The notes beneath the pieces were generated by a model. That model made no database searches. It was not told the DNA's origin and saw nothing but the letters and a program-made list of their open reading frames with translations. DNA of 44,292 nucleotides from a virus (lineage: Duplodnaviria > Heunggongvirae > Uroviricota > Caudoviricetes): IMG/VR virus record IMGVR_UViG_2660238147_000001; one strand, written 5' to 3'. Shown here in pieces: positions 14,498 to 14,924 of this stretch (its first letter is position 1; every line of letters starts with the position of its first letter). Made by a program: the position numbers and the translations under genes.

Positions 14498-14888
14498 ATA
14501 CATATCTGGATTATCACCTGTTACGGTAAAAAGTGATTGCTTACTGTTTTTGTGAATGGCATTGCAGCAGCCGGATAATGTCAGTGCTGGCTGACGGTGT
14601 GCTGGTGGCAGGTGTGGTGGTTGTTGCTTTTCCGTTGCTGAAAAAGAAAACGCCAGACTGTTAGCCGGGTATCAGTTAGCGGGAGAAATTTTTAAATACT
14701 TCACAATTCAGGCGGTTGACTGTTGTCTGGTTTGCGGGGAGTTTGTTAAAAGAAACTGGCATGGTGAATCCCCCTGTGCGGAGGGGCAATCAGCGAGTAG
14801 GTATATGGGATAATCGCGGATTCAGGTGCTGGTACTGAATTCACCGGGAGGCACCCGGCACCATGCAATGGCACATAGCGCCACTCTC

Positions 14889-14924
14889 CAGCCCCTCTCC
14901 GGAGGGGCTGTTTATATTGATTTT
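14889..14924 (+). terminator. Rho-independent terminator
   Basis: 9-bp stem CAGCCCCTC / GAGGGGCTG with TCCG loop, followed by TTTATATTGATTTT. Confidence 0.55.

Follow-up and report, generated by a model that had tools for sequence, protein, structure and literature searches.

STnc100 (Rfam RF02076) is a known family of small RNAs (sRNAs) of lambda-like prophages. EDL933 carries 11 copies, each of which has RNA-seq reads, and a Northern blot confirmed one of them (PMC5331693). The copy that immediately follows stx2B overlaps EcOnc27/sRNA103, which is bound by Hfq and was identified by Hfq-CRAC and Northern blotting (PMC12711010, PMC7873438). The sRNAs PasD1 and PasD2 of enteropathogenic Escherichia coli (EPEC) are 172-173 nt long, depend on Hfq for their stability and have targets detected by RIL-seq (PMC8550237), and a common ancestor of these RNAs and STnc100 has been proposed in a 2026 preprint (bioRxiv 10.64898/2026.05.13.724894). 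Here, we describe a related locus in a 44,292-nt stretch of caudoviral DNA (IMG/VR record IMGVR_UViG_2660238147_000001), the whole of which is referred to as the window. An earlier note had drawn attention to a cluster of hairpins and a short hydrophobic open reading frame (ORF) at 14578-14924, likening them to a structured sRNA or a type I toxin-like peptide locus. Our analysis indicates that the locus probably holds two unrelated neighbours, an STnc100-family sRNA gene and a truncated DUF3927 gene, in an ordinary arrangement and not a toxin-antitoxin system. Both the STnc100 and the DUF3927/TciB-like families are already known; the start site, the pseudoknot and the wider distribution described below are refinements.

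The hairpin cluster is one RNA gene and a member of STnc100. In an Rfam scan of the whole window, a check that the earlier note had proposed, positions 14730-14919 (+) match RF02076 at 132.4 bits (E 4.8e-29) over model positions 1-206 of 206, against a curated gathering score of 47 bits. A permissive scan of the region (E up to 10) returned STnc100 alone, apart from a chance match at E 8.9. The suggestion of a structured sRNA was thus well founded, whereas the statement that the locus could not be assigned to a known family no longer holds, as the RNA is RF02076 and the ORF belongs to Pfam PF13064 and PHROG 1470. The transcribed part, of about 160 nt, is placed at 14759-14919 (+), with a 5' end set by analogy with PasD2 and a 3' end given by the terminator. 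Other candidates were considered at this site: no ribozyme, riboswitch or tRNA-like family was matched by the permissive scan and ARAGORN calls only three tRNA genes, while Rfam, with the E limit relaxed to 10, yielded no anti-sRNA of the AsxR/AgvB type on the opposite strand, where iraM occupies its position.

Copies of this RNA are common. In complete E. coli genomes, the transcribed part is matched at 8543 places in 2937 of 5426 genomes, with up to 12 places per genome, and near-identical copies (identity of at least 99%) occur in 2362 complete E. coli records. At the E. coli matches sampled, RefSeq/PGAP annotates no RNA; instead, the strand opposite the sRNA (window 14749-14874, -) bears a pseudo 'hypothetical protein', which looks like a spurious call over structured RNA. 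A scan of one genome per species with the 22-mer CACCGGGAGGCACCCGGCACCA returned 110 stretches from many Enterobacterales genera, and of those run against Rfam the majority were assigned to STnc100. The genes that precede the copies vary (stx2B, Q, terB-DUF3927), and the usual gene downstream of the phage copies is the nanS-p esterase. The copy in the window sits between Q with the late promoter and the lysis genes, which is the location of the family in prophages.

The 195 nt from 14730 to 14924 fold at -74.6 kcal/mol, as compared to -64.8 +/- 4.5 kcal/mol for dinucleotide shuffles (z -2.2), of which 5 in 200 fold equally well, and the locus is thus more stable than expected by chance. All helices lie on the plus strand. 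The closing helix P1 is formed by GCAUGGUG (14759-14766) and CACCAUGC (14859-14866); its inner 6 bp are conserved, and column pair 3/133 is G-C in 41 sequences and A-U in 9. P2 (14770-14786) is a hairpin of 5 bp with a bulged A14782 and the loop UGUGC, in which 99.3% of cells are paired and three of the five pairs are changed on both sides (C-G to U-A, A-U or G-C). P4 (14818-14842) joins GGAUUCAG and CUGAAUUC in a stem at 14818-14825/14835-14842 with a 9-nt loop. Among 100 sequences, 74 distinct P4 helices were counted, and cognate strands form 7.1 contiguous bp compared with 3.6 for non-cognate strands; in the outer 4 bp (97.4% paired), three pairs are changed on both sides. P5 (CCGGG-AGGCA-CCCGG, 14844-14858, stem 14844-14848/14854-14858) directly abuts the 3' strand of P1; it is invariant in the set since it is part of the 22-mer search key, and it carries no covariation information. 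Of the three hairpins listed in the earlier note, the first, which is P2, and the terminator (14889-14910) are real, whereas the one placed at 14836-14850 straddles two real hairpins, P4 and P5.

Support for these helices comes from an alignment of 57 Enterobacterales cores, which RNAalifold folded unprompted into P1, P2 with its bulge, the outer P4 and P5. Over the alignment, 94% of cells are paired as compared to 42-52% with slid partners, nine pairs are changed on both sides, and the covariation score is 0.244 versus 0.101 in shuffles, none of 500 of which reaches 0.244. The covariation that the earlier note had asked about is therefore present across Enterobacterales.

The STnc100 core also contains a pseudoknot, in which strand X (AUCAGC, 14789-14794, +) pairs with X' (GCUGGU, 14828-14833) in the P4 loop. 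The 5-7 nt that follow P2 are complementary to this loop in many different sequence combinations, such as CAGC/GCUG, CUGGU/ACCAG, AAGCCA/UGGCUU and UAGGUC/GACCUG, among others. Because the columns of the MAFFT alignment lose register in the pseudoknot and the inner P4, these pairings were tested by permutation of cognate against non-cognate strands, with the register re-optimised each time; for the pseudoknot, sequences of at least 85% identity were collapsed into 55 clusters. Cognate duplexes have a mean energy of -7.97 kcal/mol, compared with -4.39 kcal/mol for non-cognate ones (Mann-Whitney p 1.3e-16), and in 29 of the 55 clusters the cognate loop ranks within the top 10% of all loops (binomial p 2.5e-15). 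The structure line of RF02076 as printed by cmscan has no X/X' pairing. Taken together, the first 108 nt fold compactly, with P1 closing a unit of P2, P4, whose loop pairs to the strand behind P2, and P5, which would be stacked on P1.

A sigma-70 promoter of the extended -10 type is predicted at 14724-14752 (+), with the -35 element TTGTCT (14724-14729), TG at 14744-14745 and the -10 element TAAAAG (14747-14752). Promoter-like hexamers recur at a fixed distance from P1, as 38% of 45 upstream regions score at least 9 compared with 2% of shuffles, and the commonest gap between the -10 hexamer and P1 in loci of other genera is 6 nt. The 5' end of PasD2 was mapped by RNA-seq in EPEC to position 741157 of NC_011601 (PMC8550237, table S6). 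This position is the first G of GCAUGGUG, i.e. the first base of P1, and by analogy we infer that the RNA of the window starts at about G14759. The sRNA gene would be an independent one, transcribed from its own sigma-70 promoter. With a start at P1, the Rfam model would carry about 29 nt of promoter: its positions 1-29 (window 14730-14758; 228-257 in the PasD2 locus L123) appear to be promoter DNA. A T/C polymorphism in the promoter region of this RNA downstream of stx2B has been linked to disease outcome (PMC12711010); as read on phage 1717 (L003), it would lie in the TG of the extended -10 element.

Downstream of P1, a variable tail of 22 nt (14867-14888, +) contains a small hairpin (14870-14882) and the C/U-rich CACUCUCC (14881-14888). 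It is followed by an intrinsic terminator (14889-14919, +), whose stem (14889-14910) has 9 bp, 7 of them G-C, and a UCCG loop, followed by TTTATATTG in the terminator scan, with the U tract UUUAUAUUG. Terminator-like sites were found by a permissive script in 109 of 120 distinct downstream sequences, and the clear G+C-rich ones start roughly 6-60 nt past the core. An alternative pairing of the P2 3' strand and the terminator 5' strand, in both of which GGAGGGGC is identical, is possible in the E. coli phage copies; it was dropped as a conserved mechanism, the terminators of other genera being unrelated. In PasD, the seed UGUGAG, predicted from RIL-seq (PMC8550237), is located in the equivalent tail just before the terminator. 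Because the PasD seed occupies this place and tails differ among STnc100 copies, the tail at 14867-14888 is likely to be the candidate target-pairing (seed) region. By the same analogy, the RNA would be made in the lysogen, bound and stabilised by Hfq, and would pair through its tail with host and prophage mRNAs, so that both Hfq dependence and the seed are assigned to the window copy through its relatives. In the lysogen, its terminator would also halt transcription arriving from upstream cargo genes, while in lytic growth the Q-modified polymerase from pR' (13.67 kb) would read through the sRNA gene.

The ORF upstream of the RNA gene has a separate origin. As noted previously, an ATG ORF is present at 14578-14664 and encodes 28 amino acids (aa), MSVLADGVLVAGVVVVAFPLLKKKTPDC, a hydrophobic peptide that ends in KKK. 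The same frame is open from GTG 14533, giving a 43-aa ORF that encloses it, and the ribosome-binding site was rightly described as weak, with no usable Shine-Dalgarno sequence before ATG 14578 or GTG 14533. The 43-aa ORF matches Pfam PF13064 (DUF3927) at 95.6 bits (cut-off 25) over profile positions 7-53. It also matches PHROG 1470 (E 7.8e-13), with ORF residues 12-40 only, over profile positions 23-51 of 54. The label of PHROG 1470 reads 'TciB-like inhibition of cell division or resistance to colicin', and the function of the intact pair described below depends on this label only. Full-length relatives have 54-57 aa and two hydrophobic helices, the additional N-terminal one being MTVKMRLAVVALLLFLVVMVVMVDF..., whereas in the window only the second helix and the tail are homologous, residues 12-43 of the 43-aa ORF being 96-100% identical to many E. 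coli entries.

The intact 57-aa gene and the end of a gene for a 143-aa TerB-domain protein share an overlap of 4 nt, and the terB-DUF3927 pair sits between Q with the tRNAs and an STnc100 copy with the nanS-p esterase. An intact DUF3927 gene would encode a two-helix membrane protein that is translationally coupled to the terB-like gene upstream. The intact pair (143 and 57 aa; e.g. 2573-3174 in L117) recurs behind Q of all three families (PF03589, PF06530, PF06323). Membership of terB/DUF3927 in a defence system was considered, but PADLOC gave no match of note, and a literature search on TciA/TciB by name returned only unrelated Trypanosoma papers. The overlapping terB gene is present in loci L116-L122 and is replaced in the window by 14047-14564. 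In blastn comparisons of the window with L117, L118 and L120, homology extends through the tRNAs to 14046, is absent over 14047-14564 and resumes at 14565. This break-point corresponds to position 3075 in L117 and L118, inside the gene at 3001-3174, and thus to position 75 of a 174-nt gene, at about codon 25.

Because homology resumes inside the gene at 14565, the 28-aa ORF is the 3' half of a gene, and its ATG is an internal methionine of the longer gene, which explains the missing ribosome-binding site. The 3' remnant of the tciB-like/DUF3927 gene spans 14565-14664 (+), the GTG 14533 start lying in unrelated DNA. The AT-rich segment of 518 bp (14047-14564, +), which stands in place of terB and of the 5' half of DUF3927, contains an ORF of PHROG 2873, a family of unknown function, which runs from TTG 14144 or ATG 14171 to 14497 (+; 230 bits) and is not called by PGAP in CFT073. 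The segment with the same junction is found in 1186 complete E. coli genomes, and the replacement removed terB and the first 24 or so codons of the DUF3927 gene. We infer that the remaining 28-aa ORF is most likely not expressed.

This origin bears on the type I toxin-like locus that the earlier note had suggested. In a toxin-antitoxin arrangement of this kind, the 28-aa peptide would be a toxin of the membrane whose translation is under the control of the hairpin RNA. The peptide is short and hydrophobic and ends in KKK, and the same prophage has a genuine hok/sok-type element elsewhere (sok, 10323-10494, by Rfam scan). Nevertheless, we judge the arrangement highly improbable, as the ORF corresponds to the 3' half of a longer gene, which encodes a two-helix protein and normally pairs with terB, and neither start of the ORF has a Shine-Dalgarno sequence. 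The RNA lies on the same strand, 95 nt downstream of the ORF, and is not antisense; the energy of its duplex with the ORF shows no excess complementarity over shuffled RNA (z +0.73 for the start region and +0.02 for the whole ORF region), and no antitoxin RNA family matches at the site in the Rfam scans, including the permissive one. Further, the STnc100 copies elsewhere follow unrelated genes. The RNA could also be viewed as the terminated leader of the late operon, a counterpart of lambda 6S and StxS that runs from pR' to tR' until Q acts. This view is invited by the location of the RNA between Q and the lysis genes and by its having both a promoter and a strong terminator, and lambda 6S RNA is about as long as the RNA of the window. 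However, a separate late promoter module is found 1 kb upstream, directly after Q, at 13646-13745 (+), with the -35 element TTGATT, the -10 element TAAATT (13669-13674), AACGAT (13681-13686) and tR' (13721-13740). We take AACGAT to be the pause-inducing element, as recognised from lambda pR'. The module predicts a short StxS/6S-like leader RNA of about 65 nt upstream of the three tRNAs. The same succession of Q, pR'/tR' and STnc100 is found in Phytobacter, Enterobacter and Kalamiella (loci L011, L036 and L053), and the separate module thus precedes the STnc100 copy in other genera too. In Stx2 phages, the STnc100 RNA is located downstream of stx2B, and a review places StxS at the 5' end of stxAB, as distinct from the sRNA dyads between the late promoter and the lysis genes (PMC7873438). 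The separate pR'/tR' and the position after stx2B imply that STnc100 is a unit of its own inside the late operon, and its identity with the late leader is hardly credible.

Equally implausible is a reading in which the main role of the hairpins is the termination or insulation of cargo between pR' and the lysis genes, while the RNA itself has no function. The terminator would block read-through in the lysogen from cargo such as the tRNAs, the PHROG 2873 ORF or, in other phages, stx2, which fits a position just 3' of stx2B or DUF3927. However, one hairpin suffices for termination, and this reading would explain neither the 108-nt core, in which P2, P4 and the pseudoknot show compensatory changes, nor its own promoter.

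Several observations weigh against the preferred account of a tail-pairing sRNA beside a silent gene remnant. The U tract is interrupted (UUUAUAUUG) and suits Hfq less well than the runs of 6-8 U that many relatives have, and in some relatives the terminator begins 6-7 nt past the core, which leaves no room for a seed. A pairing role of the tail leaves unexplained both the conservation of the 108-nt core in sequence and fold across genera and the cores that lie directly before kdgM, a small lipoprotein-like ORF and several small ORFs. The 28-aa form, identical to the peptide of the ORF, is kept intact on well over a thousand contigs, and being so widely intact, the DUF3927 remnant may be translated.

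Related cores also lie outside prophage late regions. In 17-19 chromosomal loci, an STnc100-like core lies 100-200 nt upstream of genes for the kdgM porin and a PL2 periplasmic pectate lyase; these loci belong to Klebsiella, Kosakonia, Raoultella, Enterobacter and Citrobacter, with a divergent LuxR-type gene on the other side. The kdgM-associated cores (L010, L038, L067 and about 16 others; e.g. 1850-2070 in L038) carry promoter-like hexamers upstream. Their variable loop contains TGTTTCATTTTT, which in our reading resembles half of a KdgR operator. A link through sialic acid, between the phage nanS-p and a chromosomal porin of the KdgM/NanC family, was considered and is unsupported, the chromosomal operon being kdgM with the PL2 pectate lyase. 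A variant subfamily (L012, L013, L018, L037, L054, L055, L027 and L087) shares P1, P4 and P5 and has GCGGCUCAGCGCACGC in place of P2; its members lie directly before small ORFs (DUF5983_N, DUF1317 and unknowns), lack a clear terminator and mostly fall under the Rfam cut-off. With regard to a riboswitch or other cis-regulatory leader, the core is aptamer-like, with a junction, a pseudoknot and conserved unpaired bases, but it is followed at variable distance by terminators of unrelated sequence and by genes that are heterogeneous except in the kdgM subgroup.

These features could indicate that the core is a cis-acting or factor-binding domain, for example a ligand- or protein-sensing leader or a 5' domain that shields the RNA downstream of it, with the short Hfq-bound RNA as a by-product or second use. 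The P1-closed multi-helix junction with its pseudoknot and strongly conserved unpaired bases begins at the first base of the transcript, cores precede the kdgM/pectate lyase genes in several genera or small ORFs directly, and the usual downstream gene in phages is nanS-p. On the other hand, a strong terminator closes most copies, at a distance from the core that varies, and no alternative pairing between the two is conserved. In the window, the gene downstream is encoded on the opposite strand and only a truncated nanS-p is present. Moreover, relatives occur abundantly as short RNAs that have targets in trans (PMC8550237), and the heterogeneous gene neighbourhoods suggest no ligand or partner. 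We thus regard this explanation as improbable. In a more general form, which we still consider unlikely but worth stating tentatively, the 108-nt core would be a widespread structured domain, a P1-closed four-way junction with a loop-strand pseudoknot, that has a protein or small-molecule partner or influences its own transcript in cis. Its conservation would extend from prophages to other mobile elements and to the kdgM/pectate-lyase leader found in several genera of Enterobacterales, and the tail would only add pairing specificity. If so, the 'STnc100/PasD sRNAs' would represent one use of a modular RNA device. For the window itself, the locus matters little, as it holds a common prophage sRNA and a gene fragment. 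For those working on STnc100, a start at P1, a pseudoknot supported by covariation and a core that extends beyond prophages may be useful, and they would matter if the core functions beyond carrying a seed. Such a function is plausible because disease outcome has been linked to variation in the promoter of this RNA downstream of stx2 (PMC12711010).

Returning to the two neighbours of the window, both reside in a decayed lambda-like prophage from a uropathogenic-type E. coli. The window represents a lambda-like prophage of CFT073-type E. coli, and 14500-14960 matches CFT073 and related uropathogenic strains at 100% identity. Along the window, the order is DicF, sok RNA, a DUF968 gene, rusA, Q, three tRNAs, the AT-rich stretch, iraM (-), a DUF1737 stump, holin, lysozyme and Rz. 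Q is an antiterminator of the lambda type (PF03589, 12819-13640), the three tRNA genes called by ARAGORN occupy 13784-14033, and the holin and lysozyme genes lie at about 16037-16252 and at 16945-17478, respectively. The locus does lie in an AT-rich island, as the earlier note had stated: G+C contents in successive 500-nt segments of 14001-15500 are 0.40, 0.48 and 0.32, compared with about 0.5 on either side. The tRNA at 13784-13859 is called Met (CAT) by ARAGORN and Ile by PGAP; it is presumably the usual ileZ-type tRNA, which reads Ile after lysidine modification and is part of the ileZ-argN-argO trio of Stx phages. An iraM homologue (14945-15280, -; NCBIfam NF007393, 162 bits; annotated by PGAP in CFT073) converges on the sRNA terminator, the position held by AsxR in the Stx2 phage PA2, and its stop codon is spanned by a perfect 12-bp inverted repeat (14943-14954/14965-14976). 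The 66-aa DUF1737 ORF (15529-15729) is the N-terminal stump of the nanS-p sialate esterase, which in intact prophages consists of DUF1737, SASA and DUF6645; the body of the esterase is deleted in the window.

Compared with described systems, the locus resembles hok/sok-type systems in having a small hydrophobic ORF beside a structured RNA, but it differs from them in that it has no antisense or complementary RNA and no functional start region, its ORF being a gene fragment. With TciB-like/DUF3927 proteins, the ORF of the window shares the C-terminal half, but it lacks the N-terminal helix, the native start and the terB partner. Like StxS and lambda 6S, the RNA is a short prophage RNA that ends at an intrinsic terminator and would be read through by Q-modified polymerase, and StxS also acts as an Hfq-bound sRNA (PMC7873438). 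It differs from both in that the pR' module of the window is separate, and the STnc100 RNA has its own predicted promoter and a far more elaborate fold.

The PasD RNAs of EPEC E2348/69 (EcOnc13 in enterohaemorrhagic E. coli, EHEC) are closer. The gene order in EPEC, with DUF3927, PasD2 and SASA esterase, is the same as in the window, and PasD2 (258-429 in L123), which has about 170 nt with its terminator, shares P1, P2, P4 and the pseudoknot (AUGAUC/GAUCAU). However, PasD lacks the P5 hairpin and reaches 41 bits against Rfam, under the cut-off of 47, so that PasD-type copies are missed by annotation at the gathering threshold. The tail of PasD with its seed is unrelated to the tail of the window copy, and PasD targets are thus not transferable to it. 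The RF02076 model itself differs from our reading of the window in the roughly 29 nt that we read as promoter and in its structure line, which is without the pseudoknot.

The closest counterparts are the STnc100/EcOnc27/sRNA103 RNAs of EHEC, given the full-length match at 132 bits and the shared position, flanked by the late promoter on one side and the lysis genes on the other. The EHEC copy near stx2B follows stx2B, whereas that of the window follows the truncated DUF3927 gene, and the element that converges on the 3' end of the RNA is the anti-sRNA AsxR in phage PA2 and iraM in the window. The layout of core and terminator is the same in the copies of Stx2 phages and in the window, and the tail of the window copy, although different from that of phage PA2, is identical to the tail of some Stx2a phages.

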